NCBI GenBank assembly: GCA_041586155.1
Contig: JBFHAT010000009.1
Location: 20,826 to 84,825, forward strand
Direction: 5' to 3'
Origin: Acidimicrobiia bacterium
GTDB lineage: Bacteria; Actinomycetota; Acidimicrobiia; Spongiisociales; JAENVV01
Length of the DNA: 64,000 bases
Positions within the stretch are counted from its first letter, which is position 1. Each line of letters begins with the position of its first letter. The notes under the pieces are model-generated. The model saw only the letters and a program-made list of their open reading frames with translations, was not told the DNA's origin and ran no database searches. Of the stretch, positions 5,658 through 36,426 are shown one piece after another. The position numbers were made by a program, and so were the translations under genes.

Positions 5658-5836
5658 GAGTTCCCCTCTCGATTGGTCCCAGCCGTGACGCCGTAATTCG
5701 GCGCCTACCCGTGTCCTGTACGCATCGACTGGGGAACGCGGTTCGCGAGCCCGCGCGAATCCTCTTGGGATCGGGACCGTCGACCCTGGTTGTGAGAGCC
5801 CACCTGGCCCAGACTTCGCGTGAGCAAGGAGGATCG

Positions 5837-6310
5837 ATGCAACAGGTGTTCGTGCGCCAGCTGCCTCGCCAACCGACGTTTGTCGTACGGGGGCGCGTTG
5901 CCGTAGAGGACATCGGACAGTGGTTGGGACCCGTCTTCCATCGCACAGCCGCAGCCGCCGGCAGTTCGATCGTAGGGCCACCATTCGCCCGCTATCACAT
6001 GGTGGGCGAAGCGCCTACGGAGTTCGAAGTCGAAGCCGGCTTTCCGGTCGCCGTGGCGGGGACCGCCGAGAACGGAGTGGAAACTTCCGAGCTCCCCGGC
6101 GGGCCTGCGCTGGTGGTGACGCACATTGGGCCGTTCGATGAGATCGCATCGGCCTACGAGGCGGTGACCGAGTGGTTGGCAGAGCACGGCGACGAGACGG
6201 CCGGGGCACCGTGGGAGGTCTATCTGACCGACCCCGCGCAGGAGCCGGATCCGGCTCGATGGCGCACGGAGATCGTACAGCCGTACCGTCCCAAAGAAGC
6301 GGGCTCCTAG
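5837..6310 (+). CDS. GyrI-like small-molecule-binding domain protein (AraC effector-domain-like, no HTH)
   Basis: RBS aaggagg then ATG 5837. About 158 aa. Confidence 0.45.
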   Translation: MQQVFVRQLPRQPTFVVRGRVAVEDIGQWLGPVFHRTAAAAGSSIVGPPFARYHMVGEAPTEFEVEAGFPVAVAGTAENGVETSELPGGPALVVTHIGPFDEIASAYEAVTEWLAEHGDETAGAPWEVYLTDPAQEPDPARWRTEIVQPYRPKEAGS

Positions 6311-6361
6311 CGGGTAGATTCGAGCGTCACGGCTCGTAGGGGCCTGAGAGGAGGAGCGACG

Positions 6362-8014
6362 GTGGAGGGCGCGCGCGTCGTGAGGGCGCCGAGAGGTGTC
6401 TCGCTTTCCTGCAAGGGCTGGGAACAAGAAGCGGCTCTGCGCATGCTCATGAACAACCTCGACGCAGAGGTTGCCGAGCGACCCGACGACCTGGTGGTGT
6501 ACGGCGGCACCGGCCGTGCCGCCCGAAGTTGGGCGGCATTCGACGGCATCGTGGCCGCCCTACGGGACCTCGAGGACGATGAGACTCTGCTCGTCCAGTC
6601 GGGGAAGCCGGTAGGTGTCTTCCGGACCCACGAGTTCGCCCCGAGAGTGCTCATCGCCAACTCCCATCTCGTCCCCGAATGGGCCACCTGGGAAGAGTTC
6701 CGTCGGCTGGAAGCGTTGGGTCTCACGATGTACGGCCAGATGACGGCTGGGTCGTGGATCTACATCGGCACACAGGGCATCCTGCAGGGAACCTACGAGT
6801 GTTTCGCCGAGATCGCTCGCCGGCGATTCGACGGGAGCTTGAAAGGAACGGTCACTCTGACCGCCGGCTTGGGGGGAATGGGCGGCGCACAACCTCTGGC
6901 CGTCACCATGAACGAGGGAGTGGCTCTCGTCGTCGAGGTCGATCCTCATCGGATCCGACGACGGCTCGAGACGCGCTATCTCGACGAGGCGACCGACGAC
7001 CTCGCGGAAGCCGTGGACCTCTGTCGCGCCGCCAAGCGAGAAGGTGTGGCGACCTCGGTGGGTTTGCTGGGGAACGCCGCCGACGTGCTGCCCCGCCTGC
7101 TAGCGGCCGGCTTCGAGGCGGACATCGTCACGGATCAGACGTCGGCCCACGACCCGCTCTCGTACATCCCCGACGATCTCACCGCCGAGGCGGCGGATCG
7201 CCTCCGCCGCGAGGATCCCGATACCTATACCCGTCGGTCCCGATCCGCCATGGCGCGTCACTGCGAGGCGATGGTCGGGTTCCTCGATAGGGGCGCTGAG
7301 GTCTTCGATTACGGCAACAGTCTCCGAGCCGAGGCGGAGCTCGGTGGATTCGACCGAGCGTTCGCCTTTCCCGGCTTTCTGCCGGCCTACATTCGTCCCC
7401 TCTTCTGTGAGGGCAAGGGCCCCTTCCGCTGGGTGGCGCTGTCTGGCGACCCGGCCGACATCGAAGCAACCGACCAGGCTGTGCTGAGAACGTTTCCAGA
7501 AGACGAAGCCCTCGCCAGGTGGATCCGTCTGGCCGCCGAGAAGGTTGCGTTTCAGGGTCTGCCTGCGCGCATCTGCTGGTTGGGCTATGGAGAGCGGGCG
7601 AAGCTGGGCCTGGAGTTCAATGCCATGGTTGCGTCGGGGGAGGTGAGCGCGCCGATCGTCATCGGTCGGGACCATCTCGACTCGGGCTCGGTGGCCTCGC
7701 CGTATCGCGAGACAGAAGCGATGGTCGACGGCAGCGACGCCATCGCCGACTGGCCGCTCCTCAATGCGCTCGTCAACACTGCAGCAGGCGCGTCATGGGT
7801 GAGCATCCACCACGGCGGAGGCGTGGGGATCGGACGCTCGATCCACGCCGGGATGGTGGTCGTCGCCGACGGGAGTGCACGCGCTGCGACCCGCCTCGAG
7901 CGGGTGTTGACCACCGATCCTGGGACCGGCGTCATGCGTCATGCAGACGCGGGATACGACGAGGCAATCGAAGTAGCACGAGCGCGCGGGCTGTCCCTGC
8001 CCATGGTCGAATGA
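6362..8014 (+). CDS. hutU: Urocanate hydratase
   Basis: 550 aa. N-terminus [27 protein letters not shown] and GTGRAARSW are urocanase hallmarks. Confidence 0.9.
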
Positions 8015-9336
8015 CGCACACCTATTGGGCACCGGCGGCCTGGACCGGCACGGAGTGGGTCACGGGACTGGAATTCGAGGTCGACGCCGGGACCGTGACC
8101 AGTTCGGCACGCACCTCGCGGCCATCGCCCGCGGCGTCCCGGCTGGACGGTCCGGTGCTGCCCGGCTTGGTCAACACGCACTCCCACGCCTTCCACCGCG
8201 CACTGCGCGGACGCGTCCACGGGCCTGGCGACTTCTGGGGCTGGCGGCGCGACATGTATGCGGTAGCGAGCGCGCTCGACCCGGACCGCTATGAACTGCT
8301 GGCGACCGCCGTCTTCGGAGAGATGGTCGCCGCCGGGATCACCATGGTTGGGGAGTTTCACTACCTCCATCGGGGACCAGACGGAGTGGCGTACTCACAG
8401 CCGAACGAGATGGGCCAGGCGCTCGTTCGAGCGGCGAACGCCGCCGGCATTCGGTTGTGTCTCATCGACGCCTGCTACCTGGCGTCGGATGCCGACGGGT
8501 CACCGCCCGAGGGAGCCCAGCTTCGTTTCTCGGACGGCAGCTCCGAGGCATGGACTGAGCGCCATGCTGCCCTCACGGCTGCGCTTGCGCAGTCGCCCAA
8601 CGTGACGGTCGCCGCCGCGGTCCATTCGATCCGTGCGGTGCCGTCGGCCGATCTGCCCACCGTGGCGGCGGGAGCAGGCGATCAGCCGCTGCATGTCCAC
8701 GTCTCCGAGCAGGCCGCCGAGAACGAGCGCTGCATCGAGCTGTACGGGCAGACGCCCACCGAGCTCCTGTACGAGCACGGCGTGCTCGGCCCGGGGACCA
8801 CCGCGGTGCATGCGACTCATCTCGAGGCCGGCGACATCGCCCGACTCGCCACCACCGGCACCGGCGTGTGCATGTGCCCCACCACGGAACGCGACCTCGG
8901 CGATGGGTTGGGGCCGGCCATCGAACTGGCCAAGGCCGGCGTCGAGCTGTCCGTCGGGACGGACTCCCACGCGCAGCTCGACATGTTCGAGGAGATCCGT
9001 GGCGTCGAGATGAACGACCGAGCCCGGCTCCGACGCCGGGGGCTGCACTCGCCGAGCGACCTCGTGGCGGCCGCCACCAGCAATGGCGCCGCAGCGTTGG
9101 GTCAAAACGTGTGGGGCATCATCGCAGGCGCTCCGGCCGACTTCGTCGTGGTGGACGATGCTTCGGTCAGGACGGCGGGCGGCGAAGGCATCGACGCGAT
9201 GCTTTTCACGGCCACGTCTGCAGACGTGCGCGAGACGTACGTAGGTGGCGAACAGGTGTGGGGAAACGGCGAGCATGCCTCGCTCGGCGGGCTTGCTTTC
9301 CTGCTCGAGGAGGCGGTCCGGTCGGTGGCGCCATGA
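8011..9336 (+). CDS. hutF: Formimidoylglutamate deiminase (amidohydrolase family)
   Basis: ATG 8011 overlaps the hutU stop (ATGA). [15 protein letters not shown] metal-binding motif. About 441 aa. Confidence 0.8.
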
Positions 9337-10529
9337 TCGACCTCGCCATCACCGGGGGGGTGGTCGCGACGATGCAGAACGACCCCCTCGCGGCCGAGCA
9401 TGTGGCGGTGGGAGTCTCCGGGGGGAGAATCGTCTTCTTGGGTTCCGAGCAGGACGTCCCGAACGCCGCCGAGACGCTCGAGGCGGATGGGCGGCTCGTG
9501 ACGCCGGGGCTCGTCGACTGTCACACCCACTTGGTGTACGGAGGGGATCGCCTGGCCGACTTCTCGCGACGGCTCGGAGGGGAGACCTATACCGCTCTCG
9601 CCGAGTCCGGCATGGGCATCCTGTCCACCGTAGGCGCAACGCGGTCGGCTTCGTACGAGGATCTCTTGGCCGGCGCGACGCGCAGAGCTCGCTGGCTGGC
9701 CCGCAACGGCGTGACCACCGTCGAGATCAAGTCCGGATACGGGCTGACCGTGGAGGACGAGCTGCGGATGCTCCACGTCGGGCGACAAGCGGCTGCCAAT
9801 GCGGGTTTGCGTGTGTCACTGACGTTGCTCGCAGCCCACGTCGTCCCCCAAGACGAACGCCGCTCCGACTATGTCGAGATGGTGTGCCGGGAGATGATTC
9901 CCGCTGCAGTCGGATCCGCCGAAGCGGTCGACGTCTTCGTCGAGAAGATCGCATTCACCACAGCCGAGGCAGAAACCATCTTCGCGTCCGCCGTCGAGCA
10001 CGGATTCTCCGTCAAAGCCCACGTGGGACAGCTGACCGACCTGGGTGGGGCGCAGGTCGCCGCCCGATACGGGGCCACCAGTGTCGATCATTGCGAGCAT
10101 CTGGGAGAGCCGGCCGTCGAAGCCCTCGCCGTGTCCGGGACGGTGGCGGTGCTCGCCCCGGGCGCCAACATGTTCCTCGACGAGTCACGGCGCCCGCCGA
10201 TCGATGCGCTGCGCCGGCACGGGGTGCCGATGGCGGTGACCACCGACCTCAACCCTGGCTCGTCACCGCTCGCTTCGCTGCCGCTGGCGGCGGCGCTTGC
10301 CGTGCATCGATTCGGGTTGACCGCCGCCGAGGCGCTCGCCGCCATGACCGTCAACGGGGCGCGCGCCCTGGGGCGAGCCGACAGGGCCGGCATGCTCGCC
10401 GTCGGCCGACCCGCCGACATCGTCGTATGGGACCTCCAGCACCCCATCGAGCTGACGTATTGGCTGGGCGCGCCTGCGTGCTACGCCACCGTGGTGGGTG
10501 GCCTGGTCAGTGGGTGGGACGACGCATGA
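9333..10529 (+). CDS. hutI: Imidazolonepropionase
   Basis: ATG 9333 overlaps the hutF stop. 398 aa amidohydrolase with DCHTHLVYGG motif. Confidence 0.85.
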   Translation: MIDLAITGGVVATMQNDPLAAEHVAVGVSGGRIVFLGSEQDVPNAAETLEADGRLVTPGLVDCHTHLVYGGDRLADFSRRLGGETYTALAESGMGILSTVGATRSASYEDLLAGATRRARWLARNGVTTVEIKSGYGLTVEDELRMLHVGRQAAANAGLRVSLTLLAAHVVPQDERRSDYVEMVCREMIPAAVGSAEAVDVFVEKIAFTTAEAETIFASAVEHGFSVKAHVGQLTDLGGAQVAARYGATSVDHCEHLGEPAVEALAVSGTVAVLAPGANMFLDESRRPPIDALRRHGVPMAVTTDLNPGSSPLASLPLAAALAVHRFGLTAAEALAAMTVNGARALGRADRAGMLAVGRPADIVVWDLQHPIELTYWLGAPACYATVVGGLVSGWDDA

Positions 10530-11101
10530 CGGTTCGAGCGATCACCAAGCTCGGAGATCCGATACTGCGCGCACCGACCAGGCACGTCACCTCATCCGAG
10601 CTGGTAACAGCCGACTGCCAAGCGTTGATCGACGATCTCATCGAGACGATGCGGGCTGCCAACGGTGCCGGGATCGCCGCCAACCAGATCGGCGACCCGC
10701 GTCGCATTTGCGTCATCGAGGTCCGCCCGGGCAACCCTCGATACCCGTACAAGCCTCCGCATCCGCTGACGGTGCTGGTCAATCCCGTGCTGGAATGGCA
10801 GAGCGAAGCCCGATACGACAACAACGAAGGATGTCTGTCGGTGCCTGATCTGCGGGGCGACCTGACACGATCGGTGGAGGTGGTCGTGTCCGGCTACGAC
10901 CGCGACGGCGGTCCCGTGGAGCACCACCTGCGAGGCCTCACTGCGGGGACGGCGCAGCACGAGGTCGACCATCTGGACGGTATCGTCTTCGTCGACCGCG
11001 TCGACGACCCTCGTTCGTTGTCGACGTGGGAAGAATTCCAGAAGCATCGGGCCGGGCCGTTCGAGGCTCGGATCCGGAAGATGGTCGAGGAGATGACGTG
11101 A
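10526..11101 (+). CDS. def: Peptide-deformylase-fold metallo-deformylase embedded in the hut operon
   Basis: ATG 10526 overlaps the hutI stop. 191 aa with all three PDF motifs: GIAANQIG, EGCLSVP, HEVDHLDG. Confidence 0.8.
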   Translation: MTVRAITKLGDPILRAPTRHVTSSELVTADCQALIDDLIETMRAANGAGIAANQIGDPRRICVIEVRPGNPRYPYKPPHPLTVLVNPVLEWQSEARYDNNEGCLSVPDLRGDLTRSVEVVVSGYDRDGGPVEHHLRGLTAGTAQHEVDHLDGIVFVDRVDDPRSLSTWEEFQKHRAGPFEARIRKMVEEMT

Positions 11102-12612
11102 GTCGAGGTGTAGTCATCGACGGCGGACCTCTCCGTCGGGACGAAGTTGTGGCCGTGGCCGGCGGCGGCGTGGGTGTGACCCTCGACGAGGCGGCTGTCG
11201 GTTCGATGGAAGCCGCACGGACAACCGTCGAGAGCGCCATCGCCGAAGAGCGGGTCGTGTACGGCATCACCACCGGTTTCGGTGCCCTGGCGACCACCCA
11301 CATCGGGCGCGACGACGTCGATCGACTTCAGCACGAGCTGTTGCGGTCGCATGCGGCCGGGGTCGGGCCGCCGCTGCCCGATCCGGTGGTCAGGGCGATG
11401 CTGTTGCTGCGGGCGCGCACACTGGCACAGGGGCATTCCGGTGTGAGGACTGCAGTAGTCGAGCGCATCCTCGATCTTCTGGAGGCCGATATCCTGCCGG
11501 TCGTGCCGGCGCAAGGATCGGTGGGCGCCAGTGGCGACCTGGCCCCGTTCGCCCATCTGGCATTGCCGCTGATCGGCGAGGGGACGGTTCGGCTCGACGG
11601 TGAAGAGATGGCCGCCTCTGATGCCCTCGCCCAGTCGGGACTCGAGTCGCTCAGCCTTCGAGCCAAGGAAGGTCTCAGCCTCCTCAACGGAACCGAGGGG
11701 ATGCTAGCGATGGGAGTGCTTGCACTCGAGGAAGCGGAGCGGCTGGCGATGGTCGCCGACCAGGCCTGCGCGCTGACCGTTGAGGCGGTGCTCGGCTCGA
11801 ATACGCCGTACGATCCCCGGCTCCACGCGCTCCGCCCCCATCCCGGTCAGGTGACGTCGGCGCAACACATCGCCGCGCTGCTCGAGGGATCCGAGATCGT
11901 CGAGAGCCACCGTGAGGACCTGACCCACGCGGTCCAGGACGCCTACTCGCTTCGCTGTGCCCCGCAGGTGCACGGGGCGGTGCGCGACACGCTCTCCCAC
12001 GCCGCCCGGGTCTTCGAGACGGAGTTGGGTTCGGTGGTGGACAACCCGATCGTGTTTCCCGACACCGGCGATGTGCTCTCCGGCGGGAACTTCCACGGGC
12101 AGCCACTGGCGTTCGCCTTGGACTTCATGGCGGTGGCGCTCGAGGAGCTGGCCTCGATTTCGGAGCGGCGGACGGACCGGATGCTCGACCCTGATCGGTC
12201 GTCAGGGCTCACTCCGTTCCTGGCGACCCGGCCGGGACTGCACTCAGGTCTGATGCTCGCCCAATACACCGCGGCGGCGCTCGTGGCCGAGACGAGGATC
12301 TTGGCGCATCCGGCATCGATCGATTCGATACCCACCTCGGGGCTGCAGGAGGATCATGTGTCGATGGGCTTCGGTGCAGCCCGCAAGCTGTGGGATGTGA
12401 TAGGCGATGTCCGGCTGGTGCTGGCCATCGAATTGGTTTGTGGCGCCGAGGGGATCGATCAACGGGCCCCGCTCCGGCCCGGTGCGGGCAGCAGTCGTGT
12501 CCACGACGTCGTTCGTTCGGCGGTGCCGGTGCTGGAAGGGGATCGCCCGATCGGCGTGGACATCGAAGCGGTGGCCGGCCTCATCGCCTCCGGTGCATTC
12601 GACTCGCTCTGA
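11098..12612 (+). CDS. hutH: Histidine ammonia-lyase
   Basis: GTG 11098 overlaps the def stop (GTGA). MIO-forming ASG in SVGASGDLAPF. About 504 aa. Confidence 0.85.
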   Translation: MSRGVVIDGGPLRRDEVVAVAGGGVGVTLDEAAVGSMEAARTTVESAIAEERVVYGITTGFGALATTHIGRDDVDRLQHELLRSHAAGVGPPLPDPVVRAMLLLRARTLAQGHSGVRTAVVERILDLLEADILPVVPAQGSVGASGDLAPFAHLALPLIGEGTVRLDGEEMAASDALAQSGLESLSLRAKEGLSLLNGTEGMLAMGVLALEEAERLAMVADQACALTVEAVLGSNTPYDPRLHALRPHPGQVTSAQHIAALLEGSEIVESHREDLTHAVQDAYSLRCAPQVHGAVRDTLSHAARVFETELGSVVDNPIVFPDTGDVLSGGNFHGQPLAFALDFMAVALEELASISERRTDRMLDPDRSSGLTPFLATRPGLHSGLMLAQYTAAALVAETRILAHPASIDSIPTSGLQEDHVSMGFGAARKLWDVIGDVRLVLAIELVCGAEGIDQRAPLRPGAGSSRVHDVVRSAVPVLEGDRPIGVDIEAVAGLIASGAFDSL

Positions 12613-13770
12613 TCAGGAGAGCAGCTGCGCCATACGGTTGATGGCGCGCTCGATGTTCTCGGGGGCAGCCGCATAGCTGAGCCGCAGGAAGCCCTCACCG
12701 AATGCACCGAAACTGGTGCCGGCGATGACGGCCACTCCCGCCTCGGTCAGCAGCCGCTCCTCCATCTCTGCGGAGCCGATGCCTGTTCCGGTGATGTTGG
12801 CAAACGCGTAGAACGCTCCGCCTGGCATCACGCACGTGACTCCTGGAAGCGAGTTGAGCCCGTCCACGATGAGCTGCCTGCGCCTCTCGAAGGCTTCCAC
12901 CATTGTCTCCACATCGTCTTGTGGTCCGCGTAGCGCGGCCGCTCCGGCCACCTGGACCGCTGCCGACGCGCACGAGTTCGAATTGATCTGGAGGCGTTCC
13001 GCATCGTCGATGAAGGCTGCCGGCCAGATTCCGTAACCGAGTCGCCAGCCTGTCATCGAATATGTCTTGGACCACCCGTCGAGCATGATCAGACGGTCGC
13101 GCAACTCGGGATGTGCCAACAGGCTGGCGTGCAGCACACCGTCGTACACGACGCGGCTATAGATCTCGTCGGAGAGAATGGCGACATGCGGATGGTCAGC
13201 CAGGCCCTTCGCCAGCTGTCGGAGTGAGGGCTCGTCGATCACGCCTCCGGTCGGGTTCGCCGGCGAGTTGACGATCAACAGCCTGGTTCGATCGGTGATC
13301 TGGCCAAGGACCCGCTCAGCGTCGAACCCGAAGGCGTGGTCTTCGCGCAGTTCGACCGGCACCGGGGTGGCGCCGGTATAGCTGATCATCGATTCGTAGA
13401 TGGGAAAGCCCGGGTTGGGATACATGATCTCCGCCCCCGGTTCACCGAACATCTGGATCGCGAAGAACATCGTTGGCTTGCCGCCAGGTACGAGCATGAT
13501 GGTCTCGACGTCCACTACCACGCCGCGGCGCATGGCCACGTCGTCGCGGACGGCTTCGCGTACGTCGAGCAGACCTTTGGCGGGCGTGTAGAAGTGATAG
13601 CCGTCGGCCAGGGCCTTTTGGCCGGCTGCGACGATGTGGTGCGGCGTTCGAAAGTCGGGCGCGCCGATTCCCAGGTTGATGATGTCGTGCCCGGCGCGGC
13701 GTAACGCCTCAGCCCGTGCCAAGACCGCGAATGCGGATTCGGTGCCGAGGCGGGCCATCGCCGCGGCCAT
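12613..13770 (-). CDS. Class I/II PLP-dependent aminotransferase (aspartate/aromatic type)
   Basis: SKTYSMTGWRLGY PLP-lysine motif. Start chosen at ATG 13770 (the track starts at TTG 13806). The stop abuts the hutH stop with zero gap (convergent). Confidence 0.8.
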   Translation of the reverse strand: MAAAMARLGTESAFAVLARAEALRRAGHDIINLGIGAPDFRTPHHIVAAGQKALADGYHFYTPAKGLLDVREAVRDDVAMRRGVVVDVETIMLVPGGKPTMFFAIQMFGEPGAEIMYPNPGFPIYESMISYTGATPVPVELREDHAFGFDAERVLGQITDRTRLLIVNSPANPTGGVIDEPSLRQLAKGLADHPHVAILSDEIYSRVVYDGVLHASLLAHPELRDRLIMLDGWSKTYSMTGWRLGYGIWPAAFIDDAERLQINSNSCASAAVQVAGAAALRGPQDDVETMVEAFERRRQLIVDGLNSLPGVTCVMPGGAFYAFANITGTGIGSAEMEERLLTEAGVAVIAGTSFGAFGEGFLRLSYAAAPENIERAINRMAQLLS

Positions 13771-13781
13771 GGTTGGGGAAG

Positions 13782-14411
13782 TCACAGCGTGTAGCTCTCG
13801 CCCCAATCGAGCGGGACGAGCTCGATGTCCGACTCGGCGAGGACACCGGCTGCCATCGCCACGACGAACCTCCGCCCGGCGGCGCTCAGATAGAAGTCGT
13901 GAATGGGTATCACCTGCTTGGGGGCGAGCCGGCGGGCGAACTCGACCGACTTGGTGGTGGTGCCCCAGGGTGTCATGAGCGGAAGGGCGAGAACGGGGGC
14001 GGAGTAGGTCGGCTGATAGCTGTCGCCAGGATGGGTGATCGCCCCCTCCACGGTGTAGCTGCGGTTGGGCGGTGTCGCGCCGGTGGGGATGATCTCATGC
14101 GCGACGTCCTCGGAGGTGATGCCGCCGGGGTCGGTCGTGGCGACCTCGATGCCATGGCGCTCGAGCAGCGTCGCCACGGCCTGGTTCGCATGCACCCGGA
14201 CGTCGTCGCCGCGGTCGAGGATCCACCGCACGAAATCGGGTTTGACGTGATCTCTGTGCTCGTGGGTGATCAGCACGCGGTGCACGTCGCCAATCGAGGC
14301 CAGGTCGATTGCGGCGTCGTCGAAAGTGAAGAATCCGGGGTCGACGATCGTGACGAGCCCGTCGACGGTCACCAGTAGGCATGAATCGGCGAGCCGCCGG
14401 ATGGTGGTCAT
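13782..14411 (-). CDS. MBL-fold metallo-hydrolase
   Basis: HEHRDH motif. ATG 14411 (MTTIRRLADSC). Confidence 0.6.
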   Translation of the reverse strand: MTTIRRLADSCLLVTVDGLVTIVDPGFFTFDDAAIDLASIGDVHRVLITHEHRDHVKPDFVRWILDRGDDVRVHANQAVATLLERHGIEVATTDPGGITSEDVAHEIIPTGATPPNRSYTVEGAITHPGDSYQPTYSAPVLALPLMTPWGTTTKSVEFARRLAPKQVIPIHDFYLSAAGRRFVVAMAAGVLAESDIELVPLDWGESYTL

Positions 14412-17129: not shown

Positions 17130-17236
17130 GCCACCCACCAGCGCGACTGTACCCGACGCAGCTCGGTGACTAGTCACAACATGTTTTTCCAATCTGTGCC
17201 TGTAGTCACTCTGCGTGGTTGGCCGATAGAAGGAAC

Positions 17237-18850
17237 ATGCGGTTGATCAACGCGACATCGGGCAACGTACGGCAGGCGGCGGCACTACTGGCATTCCTGC
17301 TACTCCTCTCACTGACGGCCACGGCCGTCCCCCGCTCGCCCGGGGCCGGCATCACCAACATCATCCTCAGGGCGATGCCGGGCCACGATGCTGCGGCTTT
17401 GATCGAATCGGCCGGCGGCTCGGTCGACTTGGACCTCGACATCATCAATGGGGCATCCGGTGTGGTGCCCACCGGCGCCATAGACGACCTAGCCACCAAT
17501 CCGGACGTGCACTCCGTGGTGCGCGATGCTTCGTTGGCGCTGGCCGGCAAGAACGACAACGTGATCCCCGAGTACACGACGATGTACGACGTGGCCGAGA
17601 TCATGGGCATCGATCAGGTGTGGAAGGACGGCATCACCGGGCAGGGCGTCGGAGTGGCGCTCATCGACTCGGGTGTGGCGGTCGTCAACGGATTGACCAA
17701 GTCGGGCAAAGTCATCAACGGGGTCGACCTGTCGTTCGAGTCGCAGGACCCCGGTCGCCGGTTCATCGACACGTACGGGCACGGCACCCACATGGCCGGC
17801 ATCATCGCCGCCCGCGACGACAACAATGCCGCTCCCGGACATCTTCACAACGCCAACCGCTACAACGGCATCGCCCCCGACGCCAACATCATCAACGTCA
17901 AGGTCGCCTCGTACAACGGCGCCACCGATGTGTCACAGGTCATCGCCGGCATCGACTGGGTGGTCGATCACAAAGACAACCACAACATCCGTGTGCTCAA
18001 CCTGTCGTTCGGGACGGACGGTGTTCAGGACTACCTGATCGATCCGCTCACCTATGCGGTCGAGGTCGCCTGGCACAACGGCATCGTCGTGGTGGTGGCA
18101 GCCGGCAACGGCGGCAACAACAAGTTCCTGACGAACCCCGCCTACGACCCGTTCGTGATCGCCGTGGGCTCCGTCGACACGAACGTCGTGTCGAACTCCA
18201 ACGACGACGTCGTGTCCGACTTCTCGCAGTGCGGCAATGCCCTCCGAGGCGTCGACGTGGTGGCGCCCGGTCGCTCCATCCTCAGCTTGCGGGCCCCGGG
18301 CTCGTACAGCGATGTGCAGAACCAGTCGGCCGTCGTTGATCAGCGCTTCTTCAAGGGTTCGGGCACGTCGCAGGCGACGGCCGTGGTGTCGGGCCTGGCA
18401 GCGTTGATGATCCAGCGGGATCCGTCGCTGACCCCCGATCAGGTCAAGTGGATGATCGAAGAGACTGCAGCGCCGGTCGCCGGTTCGGACGCATGTCAAG
18501 GCGACGGACGGGCCTCGGCGGCGGCGGTCACCACCAAGCTCACCAAGCTCGGCACCCCCTACGTGCAGATGTTCCCCAAGGCAACCGGCCTCGGATCGCT
18601 CGAAGCCTCCCGCGGATCGGTGCACTTGGAACTCGATGGTGTCGCCCTCGAAGGCGAGATCGACATCTTCGGCAACGCCTGGGAAGGCGTCACCTGGAGC
18701 ACAACTCCATGGAGTGGTGTCACCTGGAGTGGTGTCACCTGGAGTGGCGTGACCTGGAGTGGTGTCACCTGGAGTGGTGTCACCTGGAGTGGCGTGACCT
18801 GGAGTGGCGTGACCTGGTCCGGCACCGGTTGGGCCACTCTGGCGGGCTGA
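17237..18850 (+). CDS. Secreted S8 subtilisin-like serine peptidase with C-terminal (WSGVT)n pentapeptide-repeat tail
   Basis: RBS gaagga, ATG 17237, signal peptide. Catalytic triad contexts DSGV, HGTHMAG, GTSQATAVVSG. Tail is WEGVT-WSTTP-(WSGVT)x7-WSGTG. Confidence 0.85.
   Translation: MRLINATSGNVRQAAALLAFLLLLSLTATAVPRSPGAGITNIILRAMPGHDAAALIESAGGSVDLDLDIINGASGVVPTGAIDDLATNPDVHSVVRDASLALAGKNDNVIPEYTTMYDVAEIMGIDQVWKDGITGQGVGVALIDSGVAVVNGLTKSGKVINGVDLSFESQDPGRRFIDTYGHGTHMAGIIAARDDNNAAPGHLHNANRYNGIAPDANIINVKVASYNGATDVSQVIAGIDWVVDHKDNHNIRVLNLSFGTDGVQDYLIDPLTYAVEVAWHNGIVVVVAAGNGGNNKFLTNPAYDPFVIAVGSVDTNVVSNSNDDVVSDFSQCGNALRGVDVVAPGRSILSLRAPGSYSDVQNQSAVVDQRFFKGSGTSQATAVVSGLAALMIQRDPSLTPDQVKWMIEETAAPVAGSDACQGDGRASAAAVTTKLTKLGTPYVQMFPKATGLGSLEASRGSVHLELDGVALEGEIDIFGNAWEGVTWSTTPWSGVTWSGVTWSGVTWSGVTWSGVTWSGVTWSGVTWSGTGWATLAG
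18680..18847 (+). repeat. Coding tandem 15-bp repeat (tggagtggYgtSacc)x~10 encoding WSGVT pentapeptides
   Basis: Direct reading of nt 18680-18847 and the protein tail. Confidence 0.9.
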
Positions 18851-25058: not shown

Positions 25059-25901
25059 TCACGGGTTGGCTCCCAGCGCTCCCAGAACCATGAGATCGTT
25101 CACCGGCTCGGAGATGTTGCACGTGCCGACCGCATGGAATATCCGTCGGACGGCGGCAGGTGGGACATTCTCGCCGTGCGCCCTCCATGTGGCCGTCGCA
25201 GCTTCGAACTCCGCGGGATCCTCCGCCGAGAGAATGGGGATGAGATCCACGGCAGGGTCGGCCAACCGCGCCCGCGTCGCGGCGAGCAGATTCATGAACC
25301 CGTGCTCGGTGGCACCTTCGACGGTCGAGGGGTGACGGAAGGGGTTATGGAGACCGGCGGTGGCCTTGTATGGGACGTCATGTGCGATGCAGTCGGCGAT
25401 GAAACGGGCAACGTCTTCCACCGAAGGAAACGCAGATGGCTCCTCGCCGCCCGTCCGAATCTTCGCCCTCACGTCGAACCCTGCTTGGCGAGCGTGGGCG
25501 ATACGGTTCACCATCTCATGGTCGGGAGCGAACGCCGCCTCATAGAACGCAGCCACGCCCGCCGGGGGGAGTCGAATCGGTTCATCCGGAGAGACCCGAG
25601 CCTCCACTTGGATCGGATCACGGGCGAACGCACCCATCTCGACGTCGAGGATCACTCCGAAAGGGATCGTGGCGTCGCTGAAGTCGTCGAGTTGCGACGC
25701 CCGCAGAAGGAAGGGGCCGAGCAGCCAGCCGTTCTCGCCAGATCGAGCTGCTCGGTAGTCGACCAGAGCGCTGTCCAGGGGCAACGAGGCAGGCGGGAAC
25801 ACGCCTGCGTAGTCGAAGAACTGCTTGAACAAGTCGTTGGCCACGCTTCTCGCGAAGCCTAGGCGGGGAGGGCGAGGGAGCACCCCATCAGGACAGGACA
25901 C
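25059..25901 (-). CDS. Hypothetical protein
   Basis: 280-aa ORF with coding-like composition (KATAGLHNPFRH segment). Start uncertain. Divergent from the riboswitch. Confidence 0.35.
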   Translation of the reverse strand: MSCPDGVLPRPPRLGFARSVANDLFKQFFDYAGVFPPASLPLDSALVDYRAARSGENGWLLGPFLLRASQLDDFSDATIPFGVILDVEMGAFARDPIQVEARVSPDEPIRLPPAGVAAFYEAAFAPDHEMVNRIAHARQAGFDVRAKIRTGGEEPSAFPSVEDVARFIADCIAHDVPYKATAGLHNPFRHPSTVEGATEHGFMNLLAATRARLADPAVDLIPILSAEDPAEFEAATATWRAHGENVPPAAVRRIFHAVGTCNISEPVNDLMVLGALGANP

Positions 25902-25924: not shown

Positions 25925-26095
25925 TCACAGCATCTGTGAAGCGTCACGAGATCAGCGAAGCCGGTGCGAATCCGGCGCTGTCCCGCAACTGTGTTGCCCG
26001 CAAGGCTGAGCCAGGTCGCCTGATTCGAGACGGTGGAACGTGCCTCCGGAGGAGGGGCCCAACCACGGTCGCGGTCTCCTCCACCAAACGAGGAG
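25925..26095 (+). promoter_or_regulatory. Cobalamin (B12) riboswitch with SD-sequestering expression platform
   Basis: gcgaagccggtgcgaatccggcgctgtcccgcaactgtg matches the conserved GGGAAnccGGUGnnAAuCCggnGCnGnCCCGCnACUGU core. B12-box-like agccaggtcgcctg follows. tctcctcc can pair with the RBS gaggagga just before ATG 26103. Downstream genes are a B12/siderophore-type ABC importer and a corrinoid adenosyltransferase. Confidence 0.7.
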
Positions 26096-26102
26096 GACGC
26101 CG

Positions 26103-27116
26103 ATGACACGAACTGCCCGCTGGCTGCTCCTGGTGGTCCTGCTCGCCGCATGCGGCGTGGAGGCATCCCCGGAGGGCCCGGCTCCCACCGACCCGCCCCC
26201 GGCGAGCGAACCGGCTGCGACGAGCACGGTCGCAACGACATCACCGTCCGCAACGAGTGATCCGACCACCACGACCACCACACCCGCAGCGTTCCCCGTC
26301 ATCGTGGCGACGAGCGCCGGGGACGTAGAGGTCCCGGCCCGGCCCGTCGCGATCGTGTCGTTGTCTCCGACGGCCACCGAGATGCTGTTCGCCGTCGGCG
26401 CCGGCGATCAAGTGGTGGCGGCAGACTCGTTCTCCAACTTCCCCCCTGAAGCGCCGACCACCGACCTGGCTGCCATCACCCCGAACATCGAAGCGATCCT
26501 CGCGTTCAATCCCGACCTGGTCGTCGCCTCATTCGATCCTGGCGATCTGGTGTCGGGGCTCGCTGCGGCCGGAGTGCCCGTCATCATCCAAGACGCAGCA
26601 GTGGTGCTGGACGACGTCTACGTCCAGATGGAACAGCTGGGTCTCGCCACCGGAAACCCCGAACCGGCCGACGATGCGATTGCGGAGATCCGTTCCCGGA
26701 TCGATCGAGCGGTGGCGTCGGTCCCCGACCTCGACCAGCCTCTGACCTACTACCACGAGTTGGACTCGTCGTTCTTCACTGCGACCTCACAAACGTTCAT
26801 CGGCGAGATCTACGGACTGCTCGGTCTCGAGAACATCGCCGATGCGGCCGATGCCGACGGGACCGCCTTCGGCTTCCCACAGTTGTCGGAGGAGTTCATC
26901 ATCGAAGCGGATCCCGACCTGATCTTCTTGGCCGACACCATATGCTGTGGCCAGACATCGGAGACGGTCGCCTCCCGACCTGGCTGGGAGAGTCTCACCG
27001 CAGTAGTGGAGGGACAGGTGATCGAGCTCGACGACGACATCGCATCGCGTTGGGGTCCCCGCATCGTCGACTATCTCGAGATCGTCGCCGCAGCGGTGGC
27101 GGAGGCGGCGGGCTGA
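26103..27116 (+). CDS. ABC transporter periplasmic substrate-binding lipoprotein, BtuF/FecB class (cobalamin/siderophore)
   Basis: ATG 26103 after RBS ggagga. Lipobox LLAACG. Class III SBP-like. Confidence 0.75.
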   Translation: MTRTARWLLLVVLLAACGVEASPEGPAPTDPPPASEPAATSTVATTSPSATSDPTTTTTTPAAFPVIVATSAGDVEVPARPVAIVSLSPTATEMLFAVGAGDQVVAADSFSNFPPEAPTTDLAAITPNIEAILAFNPDLVVASFDPGDLVSGLAAAGVPVIIQDAAVVLDDVYVQMEQLGLATGNPEPADDAIAEIRSRIDRAVASVPDLDQPLTYYHELDSSFFTATSQTFIGEIYGLLGLENIADAADADGTAFGFPQLSEEFIIEADPDLIFLADTICCGQTSETVASRPGWESLTAVVEGQVIELDDDIASRWGPRIVDYLEIVAAAVAEAAG

Positions 27117-27118
27117 CC

Positions 27119-28144
27119 GTGACCTCGCACCCCTCCCGTCTCCCGGCGCGTTGGGTGGTGACGGCGTCGGCCTTGGTGGCGATTGCCGCTGCCGTGGGGG
27201 TCATGGTGGGGCCTGCCTCGTTGACGGTCGGCAACATCATCGGCGCCGTCGGGGATCGATGGTTGGGGATCGAGGCGACTGTGCCCCTCACTCCGGCACA
27301 GGACGCGATCTTGTGGGACATCCGCCTCCCGCGGGTCGTGCTTGGCATGATCGTCGGCGGAGGGCTGGCGGTCTCCGGAGCGGCATATCAGGGCGTCTTC
27401 CGCAACCCTCTTGCCGACCCCTTCCTCTTGGGAGTGGCGGCCGGTGCCGGCCTCGGGGCCACGATCGGAATCGTGTTCGGCCTGGATCGAGCGCTCCTAC
27501 CGCTGCTCGCATTCGTCGGAGCGGTCGCCGGGGTGAGCGCCGCCTATCTCCTGGGATTCTCGCTTCGCACCGGCCGCTCGGCCGGGGCGCTTCTCCTCGC
27601 CGGTGTGGCGGTGGCCGCCTTCCTGACGGCGGTCCAGACATACCTGCAGCAGCTCAATTCGGATGCATTGCGCGACGTGTATTCGTGGATCCTCGGTCGC
27701 CTCTCGACGACCGGCTGGAGAGAAGTGGTGTTGGTGCTCCCGTACGTCGCCATCGGCATCGCCGTGTTGCTCGCTTCACGGCGCTGGCTCGACGTACTCG
27801 CTTTGGGCGACGAGGAGGCGTCCGCACTCGGTCTTGATGTGGGCAAGACCCGAACGGTGGTCATCGCGGCCGCCACCCTCGTGACGGCGGCATCCGTTGC
27901 CGTGTCCGGGTTGATCGCCTTCGTTGGGATCATCGTGCCCCACATCCTCCGGCTGCTGGTAGGGACGAGCTACCGGCGGCTCATTCCTCTGTCCATCCTC
28001 GGCGGCGGGGCGTTTCTGGCGCTGGCAGACGTGCTGGCGCGGTCGATCCAGCAGCCGGCCGAGTTGCCGATCGGAGTGGTCACTGCGTTCATCGGCGCGC
28101 CGTTCTTCGCCCTGGTGCTCCGCACGTCGGGGCGACAGCCATGA
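27119..28144 (+). CDS. FecCD-family ABC permease (BtuC-like)
   Basis: GTG 27119 three nt after the upstream stop. About 341 aa polytopic protein with FecCD-type motifs. Confidence 0.75.
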   Translation: MTSHPSRLPARWVVTASALVAIAAAVGVMVGPASLTVGNIIGAVGDRWLGIEATVPLTPAQDAILWDIRLPRVVLGMIVGGGLAVSGAAYQGVFRNPLADPFLLGVAAGAGLGATIGIVFGLDRALLPLLAFVGAVAGVSAAYLLGFSLRTGRSAGALLLAGVAVAAFLTAVQTYLQQLNSDALRDVYSWILGRLSTTGWREVVLVLPYVAIGIAVLLASRRWLDVLALGDEEASALGLDVGKTRTVVIAAATLVTAASVAVSGLIAFVGIIVPHILRLLVGTSYRRLIPLSILGGGAFLALADVLARSIQQPAELPIGVVTAFIGAPFFALVLRTSGRQP

Positions 28145-28938
28145 GCCACTTGAGTGCCCAGGGCATCACCGTCGAGGTGGATGGCCGGGTCCTGGTCGAC
28201 TCCTTTGCGTTTGACGCACCGACCGGCTCATGGACGACGATCATCGGACCCAATGGGGCGGGCAAGACCACGCTGATTCGAGCGATGCTCGGTCTCGTCC
28301 GCTATTCCGGCGGTGTCCTACTCGACGGGCGATCAGTGAACGGCCGTGCGCTGGCGCGAAGGGTCGCCTACGTGCCTCAAAGGCCGGAGCGGCCGCCCGG
28401 AATGAGGGTGGTCGATTACGTGACGTTGGGGCGTACGCCACACCTCGGCTATTTCGGCCGAGAATCGGAGCGGGACTGGGCGGCTGTCAACGAAGCGCTC
28501 GCCGTGATGGATCTCGGTGAGCTCGCCGCCCGCGACGTCGCCAGCCTGTCGGGTGGCGAGGCGCAGCGGGTGGCGCTGGCCCGCGCGGTCGCTCAGGAGG
28601 CCACGTTGTTGATTCTCGACGAGCCCACGACGGGGCTCGATATCGGCCGCCAGCAGGAAGTGATGGCGCTGATCGACGGCCTGCGGCGGGCACGCTCACT
28701 CACGGTGATCGCGACGATGCACGATCTGACCATCGCTGCGCAGGTGTCGGATGTCGTCATGCTCATGAACGGCGGCCGTCTCATCCATCGGGGATCGGCG
28801 GGCGACGTGGTCACACCCGACCTCATCGGAGAGCACTACGGTGCGGAGGTGGCAGTGATCACCGACGAGGACGGACACCTCCATGTCATCCCCAAGCGTT
28901 CGGGGACGGCGGGAAGATCGATGATGGAGCAACGATGA
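28141..28938 (+). CDS. ABC transporter ATP-binding protein (BtuD/FecE-like)
   Basis: ATG overlaps the permease stop. Walker A GPNGAGKTT, signature LSGGEAQR, Walker B LLILDEPT. Confidence 0.85.
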   Translation: MSHLSAQGITVEVDGRVLVDSFAFDAPTGSWTTIIGPNGAGKTTLIRAMLGLVRYSGGVLLDGRSVNGRALARRVAYVPQRPERPPGMRVVDYVTLGRTPHLGYFGRESERDWAAVNEALAVMDLGELAARDVASLSGGEAQRVALARAVAQEATLLILDEPTTGLDIGRQQEVMALIDGLRRARSLTVIATMHDLTIAAQVSDVVMLMNGGRLIHRGSAGDVVTPDLIGEHYGAEVAVITDEDGHLHVIPKRSGTAGRSMMEQR

Positions 28939-29498
28939 CCGAGGTTCCTCCCACCGAGATCGAACGCACGCCGTTGCGCACCGTCCCCTCGCTCGTGCTG
29001 GTCAACACGGGCGACGGGAAGGGGAAGACGTCGGCGGCGATAGGCGTCATGATCCGGGCGGTCGCACTGGGCTGGAAGGTGGCGGTGGTTCAGTTCCTCA
29101 AGTCGGGCGACTGGCACTCCGGCGAGGAGGAGGTCGCCCGCCGGCTAGGGGTCGATTGGTGGAGTCTCGGAGATGGCTTCACGTGGGATTCGGATGACCT
29201 CGACGAGTCGGAGGCTGTCGCTCGGGAGGCGTGGAAGCACAGTCAGCAATTGATCAGAGCGGGCCAGCACCGGCTGGTGATCCTGGACGAAATCACTTAT
29301 CCGGTGACTTGGGGCTGGATCGAGGTATCCGAGGTCGTGGACTCCGTGGCCCACCGTCCGCCCAAAGTGAACGTCATGGTCACGGGTCGAGACTGCCCAA
29401 ACGAGCTGATCGATCTGGCCGACACTGTGACGGAGATGGTCTCTGTGAAGCACGCTTTCGATGAAGGAATCGCTGCCAAGAAGGGCATCGACTACTGA
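28935..29498 (+). CDS. cobO: Cob(I)yrinic acid a,c-diamide (cobalamin) adenosyltransferase
   Basis: ATG overlaps the ATPase stop. VNTGDGKGKTSAAIG P-loop typical of CobA/CobO/BtuR. 187 aa. Confidence 0.8.
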   Translation: MTEVPPTEIERTPLRTVPSLVLVNTGDGKGKTSAAIGVMIRAVALGWKVAVVQFLKSGDWHSGEEEVARRLGVDWWSLGDGFTWDSDDLDESEAVAREAWKHSQQLIRAGQHRLVILDEITYPVTWGWIEVSEVVDSVAHRPPKVNVMVTGRDCPNELIDLADTVTEMVSVKHAFDEGIAAKKGIDY

Positions 29499-35427: not shown

Positions 35428-36426
35428 ATGGCCCGATTACGTCTCTTCGCCAACCTGCGCGAGCTCGCAGGCGTCGCCGCGGTTGAGATGGCAGGCGACA
35501 CGGTGGGGGAAGTGCTGCGAGCTGCCACCGAGACCTTTGGGCCGGCCTTTGCCAACGGGGTGGCCCATTCCAAGATCTGGCTGAACGGCGAGCCGGCGCA
35601 CGAGGCCGATCCCGTCACTGACGATGACGAGCTGGCGATCATCCCGCCGGTTTCCGGGGGGGTGCTGGCCGGCGTCGAGCCTTCGACGATCGTGTGGGTG
35701 GTGGCGGCGACGATAGTCGTGGCGGTGGCAAACGCCTTCTCTTCGGCTGCGGTGTTCGCTGCGGCGCTGATCGGAGTCACTGCTTTCTGGGCAGTGGACC
35801 TGTGGAGAGAGACCGGAGAAGGAGGCCTCGATCTTCAATTGGGGCCGATCCTGGCCACTGCACTGATCGGCGCCATCGCGGCGCTGGGGGCGCCGGGCGT
35901 GGGCGACCGATTCAGCGGATTTGGCATCGTTCTCGTGTTCGCCGTGTTCACCATGCTCGCCTGGGCGGTCGTCGTGCCGGAGGCTCGCGATCTCACCGTC
36001 GTCGGCGTCACGCTGACCGTGCAACTGGTCGTGGGCTTCGCGGCAGCCTCGATGATCACCATCCGCATAGGAGAGGGCGGCGCCCGCATCGTGGGGGTGT
36101 TCCTCATCCAGGTGGTCGTCGCCACCCTGGCGACGTGGCTCGCCACCCGACTGGCGATTCCCTACCTCGACCCGTATGTGGCAGGTGCCGCCGGGGCAGT
36201 GGTGGCCGGTCTCGCCGCCGCCGCGGTCTGGGACCTGTCGTTGGTGGCGTACCTGCTGGTTGGTGCGGTGGTGGCCCTGGCACTGATCGGCGGGCGAGGC
36301 TTCGGAGCGATGTGCCGGACTGGCGAGGTGTATCTGGTGGATCGCCCTCCAGGCCTGCTGTCCGATCTCGATGGCCCTATCGTCGCTGCCGCCGCGTTCC
36401 TGCCCGTGCTGCTGCTGGTCAGCTGA
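35428..36426 (+). CDS. Fusion: MoaD/ThiS-like beta-grasp domain ending ...PPVSGG, in frame with a ~250-aa polytopic membrane domain
   Basis: First 78 aa align to the MoaD pattern (MxxLxxFAxLRELxG ... DDELAIIPPVSGG). Immediately continues into 6-7 hydrophobic helices. G7 homopolymer 35656-35662 and an in-frame GTG at 35662 sit at the junction. Confidence 0.55.
   Translation: MARLRLFANLRELAGVAAVEMAGDTVGEVLRAATETFGPAFANGVAHSKIWLNGEPAHEADPVTDDDELAIIPPVSGGVLAGVEPSTIVWVVAATIVVAVANAFSSAAVFAAALIGVTAFWAVDLWRETGEGGLDLQLGPILATALIGAIAALGAPGVGDRFSGFGIVLVFAVFTMLAWAVVVPEARDLTVVGVTLTVQLVVGFAAASMITIRIGEGGARIVGVFLIQVVVATLATWLATRLAIPYLDPYVAGAAGAVVAGLAAAAVWDLSLVAYLLVGAVVALALIGGRGFGAMCRTGEVYLVDRPPGLLSDLDGPIVAAAAFLPVLLLVS

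Follow-up and report, generated by a model that had tools for sequence, protein, structure and literature searches.

What does a peptide deformylase (PDF) gene do inside a histidine-utilization (hut) operon? The question is raised by a 64,000-nt stretch of DNA from an Acidimicrobiia bacterium (GenBank assembly GCA_041586155.1, contig JBFHAT010000009.1, positions 20,826 to 84,825; the whole stretch is hereafter the window), in which a PDF-family gene lies between hutI and hutH. We consider it highly probable that the encoded PDF-fold protein is a non-homologous N-formyl-L-glutamate deformylase, which would replace HutG (EC 3.5.1.68) as the fifth hut enzyme; the proposed substrate is suggested jointly by the position of the gene in the operon, by fusion of its homologs to HutF, and by PDF chemistry. 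The initial annotation of this DNA had proposed such a recruitment in place of HutG, and the proposal now draws support from genomic linkage, pocket residues and the HutF fusions. The operon comprises:

6362–8014, plus strand: hutU, urocanate hydratase; 550 aa, GTG start; TIGR01228 at 929 bits (cutoff 375); Pfam Urocanase_N, Urocanase and Urocanase_C
8011–9336, plus strand: hutF, formimidoylglutamate deiminase; 441 aa; NF006681 at 547 bits (cutoff 362) and TIGR02022 at 437 bits (cutoff 413)
9333–10529, plus strand: hutI, imidazolonepropionase; 398 aa; TIGR01224 at 408 bits (cutoff 298)
10526–11101, plus strand: PDF-family gene, proposed N-formyl-L-glutamate deformylase; 191 aa; supported by PF01327, structural model, Foldseek, hut linkage and HutF fusions
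11098–12612, plus strand: hutH, histidine ammonia-lyase; 504 aa, GTG start; TIGR01225 at 655 bits (cutoff 539)
8011–8014 (ATGA, hutU/hutF), 9333–9336, 10526–10529 and 11098–11101, plus strand: 4-nt stop/start overlaps, ATGA or GTGA, at all four junctions

The five plus-strand open reading frames (ORFs) are consecutive and overlap at each junction, just as initially annotated, and their translational coupling is established. Both the gene boundaries and the 4-nt overlaps are reproduced in independent gene calls on at least 23 Logan contigs that encode an identical PDF protein (L091–L093 among them). The sequence GAGAGGAGGAG stands before the GTG start of hutU. The hutH, hutU, hutI and hutF genes are co-oriented and contiguous, and each exceeds its NCBIfam equivalog cutoff, as in a HutF-type five-step operon. 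In the pathway that we propose, HutH would deaminate histidine to urocanate, HutU would hydrate urocanate to imidazolone propionate, and HutI would open the ring of the latter to give N-formimino-L-glutamate. HutF would then strip this intermediate of its imino nitrogen to yield N-formyl-L-glutamate and NH3, and the PDF-fold enzyme would finally hydrolyze N-formyl-L-glutamate to L-glutamate and formate with a metal-activated water, by the standard PDF mechanism. The chemistry of this last step is that of PDFs in general, the hydrolysis of an N-formyl amide. The initial claim that the HutF branch needs a deformylase has to be relaxed for the case in which histidine serves only as a nitrogen source, when N-formylglutamate could in principle be the end product.

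The absence of a HutG-like gene from the window, also claimed at the outset, is borne out as far as the ORFs were scanned: none of 30 Pfam-scanned ORFs matches PF05013 (HutG/FGase), M20 (PF01546), arginase or formyltransferase, the other ORFs (pyruvate phosphate dikinase, ABC transporter, cytochrome bc1/aa3 and Nuo genes) having been read only by eye, from translation alone. No second PDF was found in the window by tblastn. Pseudomonas-type HutG (FGase, PF05013, EC 3.5.1.68), which is likewise encoded with hut genes, resembles the window protein in the reaction proposed and in its position after HutF, but is unrelated to it in fold and family, the window protein falling outside PF05013. An M20/COG0624 HutG candidate occupies the same slot beside hutF in other Actinomycetota (Streptomyces) and is fused to HutF in oomycetes; it belongs to another superfamily, and the window protein has no PF01546 match. 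SEED had put this M20 (COG0624) protein forward as another possible N-formylglutamate deformylase, and the Streptomyces avermitilis protein was found to be without such activity (PMC3223725, Table 3). Arginase-family HutG, the formimidoylglutamase (EC 3.5.3.8) of four-step pathways, is also terminal and yields glutamate, but its substrate is formiminoglutamate itself and its pathways lack HutF, whereas the window operon has HutF.

The linkage of the PDF-like gene to hut genes is far from chance, because the same gene is embedded in the hut clusters of 54 other loci. The closest database relatives of the window protein are all 190–195 aa in length, with 58–67% identity, and six of these lie in the order hutU-hutF-hutI-PDF-hutH (two, one of them headed by hutC) or hutH-hutU-PDF-hutF-hutI (four). 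A scan of one genome per species with the peptide patterns [GD]NPRYPYK and GT[FA]QHE[VLT]DH matched 599 stretches, 588 of which encode a relative of the PDF-like protein; at least 588 species genomes accordingly encode a relative matching one of these two family-specific patterns. The loci analyzed were the best 80 of the 599 stretches, with 10 kb on each side and with the window Hut proteins as tblastn queries. The PDF-like gene lies within a hut cluster at all 41 Actinomycetota loci (Solirubrobacterales, Thermoleophilaceae, Acidimicrobiia, Ilumatobacteraceae), and likewise at the metagenomic loci (L001–L007 and L088–L093), which together make up the 54. Four gene orders are represented (hutH-U-PDF-F-I, hutU-F-I-PDF-H, hutH-U-F-PDF-I and hutH-U-F-I-PDF), with hutF present wherever the locus does not run into a contig end, and the junction upstream of the PDF-like gene is a 4-nt overlap in 32 of 52 cases. 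In L088 and L089, hutC (GntR+UTRA), hutU, hutF, hutI, PDF and hutH form a single overlapping string. The hutI-def-hutH type of arrangement first noted in the window thus recurs in related genomes and outlasts rearrangement.

Clustering of the ORFs in the actinobacterial loci revealed no further conserved gene that might be the real HutG; the recurring neighbors (ABC ATPase, NfeD/Band 7, PGA_cap, FtsH, Usp and thiolase) each appear in at most eight loci. An alternative HutG inside these operons could be ruled out, as no other gene is conserved across the loci, and the PDF-like protein is therefore the only operon candidate for the step after HutF. By tblastn, 53 of the 54 hut-linked loci lack a second PDF; fmt was not searched for in them. 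On one 805-kb long-read contig (L004), hutF and hutI are called as a single 812-aa product (8576–11014), with hutU and hutH in fragments, which looks like frameshift noise rather than a real fusion.

The residues of the protein are as telling as its surroundings. PF01327 is the sole Pfam match of the window protein (148 bits; gathering score 22.8). The top Foldseek matches of its AlphaFold2 model (pLDDT 94.8, pTM 0.90) are all PDFs, and the model superposes on PDF1A-type deformylases (Leptospira LiPDF 1sv2, Arabidopsis PDF1A 1zxz/4je6 and Burkholderia 5hgw) with TM-scores of 0.83–0.87 and rmsd of 1.1–1.8 Å. The segments on which the following comparison turns are:

10664–10687, plus strand: PDF motif 1, G47-A48-G49-I-A-A-N-Q54; A48 occupies the E. 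coli Ile44 position
10733–10756, plus strand: CD-loop insert N70-P-R-Y-P-Y75-K76-P77; the Tyr-Lys is the family signature
10826–10840, plus strand: PDF motif 2, E101-G-C103-L-S105; C103 is a metal ligand, and N100 stands just before the motif
10931–10972, plus strand: R136-G-L-T-A-G141-T142-A-Q-H145-E146-V-D-H149, with the HEXXH metal/catalytic motif; G141 and T142 occupy the E. coli Ile128 and Cys129 positions

The intact metal-site motifs initially annotated (G47-A-G-I-A-A-N-Q54, E101-G-C-L-S105 and H145-E-V-D-H149) are all present. E. coli numbering can be used here because the Def sequence taken as the reference is identical to that of PDB 1bs4. In the alignment, the catalytic residues are conserved (E. 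coli Q50, C90, H132, E133 and H136 corresponding to Q54, C103, H145, E146 and H149), and metal ligands and catalytic residues alike are intact in every hut-linked protein. The catalytic apparatus would thus consist of a metal held by Cys103, His145 and His149, with Glu146 as general base, and Gln54. Comparison of the S1′ pocket with that of canonical PDFs reveals systematic differences at the equivalents of the E. coli positions, namely I44 to A48, I128 to G141 and C129 to T142, which do not vary among the 49 hut-linked and 39 Myxococcota sequences. In the E. coli enzyme, Ile44, Ile128 and Cys129 line the S1′ methionine pocket; where a functional peptide deformylase has a hydrophobic S1′ pocket, the window protein has Ala48, Gly141 and Thr142, which would constitute a remodeled substrate site.

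Y75-K76 is also invariant in the family. Among 97 representatives with intact catalytic motifs, both YK and GT are present in 31, one alone in four, and neither in 62, in a count uncorrected for phylogeny; the A48/YK/GT signature, as read from these sequences, appears to track hut association. Asn100 (Glu87 in E. coli, Trp in PDF1A-like proteins, Tyr in Myxococcota) and Arg136 (Asp123 in E. coli) are restricted to the bacterial hut-linked group. The Type 1A-like PDFs (Leptospira interrogans LiPDF, 1sv2/1y6h; Burkholderia, 5hgw/5kob; Arabidopsis PDF1A, 1zxz/4je6) share the fold, the three catalytic motifs and the N-x-R-Y-P CD-loop insert with the hut-linked family, at 37–45% identity to the window protein. 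They differ in having G-T, D-A or E-A after RYP in place of the invariant Y-K, I/R/V plus V/L at the positions of G141-T142, and Trp rather than Asn before EGCLS; they act on nascent fMet-peptides, and their genes lie outside hut operons. In LiPDF, the CD loop, whose Tyr71 is the Tyr of RYP, gates the substrate pocket, and in the window protein Tyr75-Lys76 on the corresponding loop is a candidate binder of a substrate carboxylate. E. coli PDF performs poorly on N-formylmethionine when no residue follows. A pocket that is wider and more polar, together with a lysine on the gating loop, would be a reasonable means of accommodating a free N-formyl amino acid that bears two carboxylates.

Fusions to HutF itself extend the association beyond bacteria. 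A search based on 1.84 billion representative proteins turned up PDF-like proteins of 330–700 aa, including one of 659 aa (P0170) in which a complete PDF-like domain (residues 1–190) precedes a complete HutF (residues 211–657; NF006681 at 377 bits, cutoff 362). Homology searching with this protein yielded 17 or more clusters (90% identity) of PF01327+PF01979 architecture, comprising PDF-like::HutF fusions of 578–736 aa (one cut at 475 aa) with 55–70% mutual identity. Fusion transcripts in EukProt derive from the choanoflagellates Stephanoeca diplocostata and Acanthoeca spectabilis, and from the chrysophyte Paraphysomonas (MMETSP1103), while other fusions occur on eukaryote-like contigs from several marine samples (picoeukaryotes), with wide spacers and AT-rich flanks. 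The neighbors of the contig-borne fusions include EF-hand proteins, a 1203-aa ankyrin/LRR protein, Oscp1, UDG and a full-length ABC transporter. Their occurrence both in transcriptomes and on eukaryote-like contigs from several samples indicates that the fusions are real genes rather than read-through artifacts. Every eukaryotic fusion keeps the metal and catalytic residues, and has A48, RYPYK and G-T.

In oomycetes (Phytophthora, Pythium, Lagenidium, Globisporangium), HutF is instead the N-terminal part of a HutF::Peptidase_M20 fusion of 827–861 aa (P0346, P0303, P0291, P0327, P0340, P0381, P0385 and P0387). With M20 in oomycetes and the PDF-like domain in other protists, the step after HutF can therefore be filled by different hydrolases, and two unrelated amidohydrolases joined to HutF in different lineages are what one would predict were each to perform the following step of the pathway. 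A further long protein of 590 aa (P0198) combines a PDF domain with ankyrin repeats, and has ECCPC for EGCLS and LHQYDH for QHExDH; this PDF domain is probably catalytically altered.

Several findings pull away from an N-formyl-L-glutamate deformylase, and need to be set beside the above. The window protein passes the curated cutoffs for 'peptide deformylase' (NF001159, 151.8 bits against 125; TIGR00079, 112.8 against 103.95), and has 36–43% identity to E. coli Def; it may therefore have peptide deformylase activity. The roles given to its residues derive from homology to the E. coli and Leptospira structures, rather than from coordinates. The 54 hut-linked loci come from two related classes, and part of the conservation of linkage is therefore inheritance. 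Identity between the eukaryotic PDF domains and the bacterial hut-linked proteins is 42%, no higher than for Leptospira PDF, and a single YK+GT clade was not resolved in a neighbor-joining tree that was not clean. As the tree was unclean and overall identities were uninformative, monophyly of all YK+GT proteins was dropped as a proposition; the signature may be convergent, having arisen twice rather than having been inherited. Were this the case, the tie between signature and substrate would be stronger. Finally, none of 39 loci labeled Myxococcota or 'Deltaproteobacteria' has a hut gene within 10 kb, and the evidence for a def-fmt pair in the same genome, described below, comes from one of these (L036) and not from a hut-linked genome.

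The Myxococcota copies have 53–58% identity to the window protein and share its A48/RYPYK/GT signature, but have Tyr at position 100 rather than Asn. In the neighbor-joining tree, they form a clade whose sister group is the Acidimicrobiia hut-linked proteins, to which the window protein belongs. The genera and families concerned include Polyangium, Nannocystis, Sorangium, Enhygromyxa and Kofleriaceae (L009, L015, L018–L021, L026, L031, L033 and L036–L038 are examples among the 39 loci). Neighbor clustering and Pfam scans uncovered no conserved or informative neighbors, which are an assortment of SelA, competence protein, CHAD, VWA and 5′-nucleotidase. When all fetched loci were searched by tblastn with the E. 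coli, Leptospira and Burkholderia PDFs, the only locus with a second PDF was that of a Myxococcaceae metagenome-assembled genome (L036), in which a canonical def-fmt pair lies 5 kb from the family member (10172–11667, minus strand, and 5874–6431, plus strand, of that locus). The family member is thus an extra paralog there, because a canonical def-fmt pair is nearby in the same genome. The Myxococcota copies could be an unlinked HutG analog, or could have another specificity associated with Tyr100.

Could the window gene nonetheless encode a genuine peptide deformylase (EC 3.5.1.88), housekeeping or accessory, that acts on nascent fMet-peptides and has come to rest among hut genes by chance? 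The three intact PDF motifs, the scores above curated cutoffs, the predicted PDF1A-type fold and the close Myxococcota relatives outside hut clusters would all be accommodated, but chance placement sits poorly with a linkage kept through four rearrangements in 54 loci, with a relative in an operon that starts with hutC, and with a PDF-like domain fused to HutF in eukaryotes. Ala, Gly and Thr at the methionine-pocket equivalents also speak against fMet-peptides as substrates, as does the lack of a formyltransferase match in the scanned window ORFs, the rest having been judged by translation only; moreover, it seems implausible that an essential co-translational enzyme would be made only from a catabolic operon. 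We regard a genuine peptide deformylase as very unlikely on these grounds. Recruitment as a means of resistance to, or as a decoy of, natural actinonin-type PDF inhibitors would also yield an extra PDF copy, and the orphan paralogs in Myxococcota are consistent with such a role. Self-resistance is a reported function of PDF paralogs in actinonin-type and lydiamycin-type biosynthetic clusters. There are, however, no biosynthetic genes near the window gene or in the 54 hut-linked loci, and resistance would leave the HutF fusion unexplained, making this account extremely improbable.

A subtler alternative grants the protein a place in the hut pathway as a small-molecule amidase, but for a substrate other than N-formyl-L-glutamate, such as N-formimino-L-glutamate, formylisoglutamine, or another N-formyl amino acid formed as a side product of imidazolone propionate. 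Linkage and fusions place the protein at or beside the HutF step without naming its substrate, and are as such compatible with this proposal. HutF is present, however, in each untruncated hut-linked locus and as the fusion partner, and it yields N-formyl-L-glutamate. HutF would be redundant if the protein were a direct formiminoglutamase, and the PDF mechanism acts on formamides, not amidines. Another hut substrate is therefore very unlikely in our estimation, and we retain N-formyl-L-glutamate as the probable substrate of the PDF-fold enzyme.

The surroundings of the operon in the window, the G+C content of which is approximately 65%, offer further context. No hutC adjoins the operon; a gene with a GyrI-like small-molecule-binding domain (5711–6310, plus strand) sits directly upstream of hutU instead. 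This gene is kept in the close relatives L001 and L091, whereas the more distant L088 and L089 have hutC in its place. A promoter and terminator scan of the operon returned nothing beyond shuffled expectation. Downstream, a convergent class I/II aminotransferase ORF (12613–13806, minus strand) ends one base after the hutH stop (12612), and there is no space for a terminator between the two because the aminotransferase ORF ends at the very next base. Elsewhere in the window, an S8 subtilase (17219–18850, plus strand) bears approximately eight tandem GVTWS pentapeptides at its C-terminus. An ORF of 280 aa (25059–25901, minus strand), coding-like in its codon bias and without a Pfam match, is flanked on one side by the pyruvate phosphate dikinase gene and on the other by a cluster (26040–29498) of vitamin B12/siderophore-type ABC uptake genes with cobO. 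A further ORF (35428–36426, plus strand) combines a ThiS/MoaD-like ubiquitin-fold N-terminal domain with a long hydrophobic region that is probably membrane-spanning.

A full-text literature search returned no report that connects peptide deformylase to hut genes, to N-formylglutamate or to HutF. Neither the hut pathway nor HutF nor the PDF fold is new; the apparent novelty lies in the recruitment of a PDF-superfamily enzyme to the role of HutG. More broadly, we think it probable that PDF-fold proteins with the A48/R-Y-P-Y-K/G-T signature constitute an unrecognized, widespread class of N-formyl-L-glutamate deformylases, found in the hut operons of Thermoleophilia and Acidimicrobiia, in HutF fusions of choanoflagellates, chrysophytes and marine picoeukaryotes, and maybe unlinked in Myxococcota. 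JGI and NCBI entries that name these proteins call them 'peptide deformylase', and the A48, Y75-K76 and G141-T142 signature could serve to correct such annotations. The oomycete HutF::M20 fusion, for its part, gives reason for a second look at the M20 candidate reported as inactive (PMC3223725).

If the proposed function is correct, the last step of histidine catabolism would gain its missing enzyme in two large, mostly uncultured classes of soil and marine actinobacteria, as well as in several protist lineages. The enzyme would represent a further non-homologous solution for EC 3.5.1.68, and would bear on the documented gap in N-formylglutamate deformylases among actinobacteria. To our knowledge, this protein would also be the first member of the PDF superfamily to be devoted to small-molecule catabolism instead of protein maturation. 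The PDF scaffold, which has been seen as that of a dedicated co-translational enzyme and antibiotic target, would then have been adapted to act on an N-formyl amino acid in free form.

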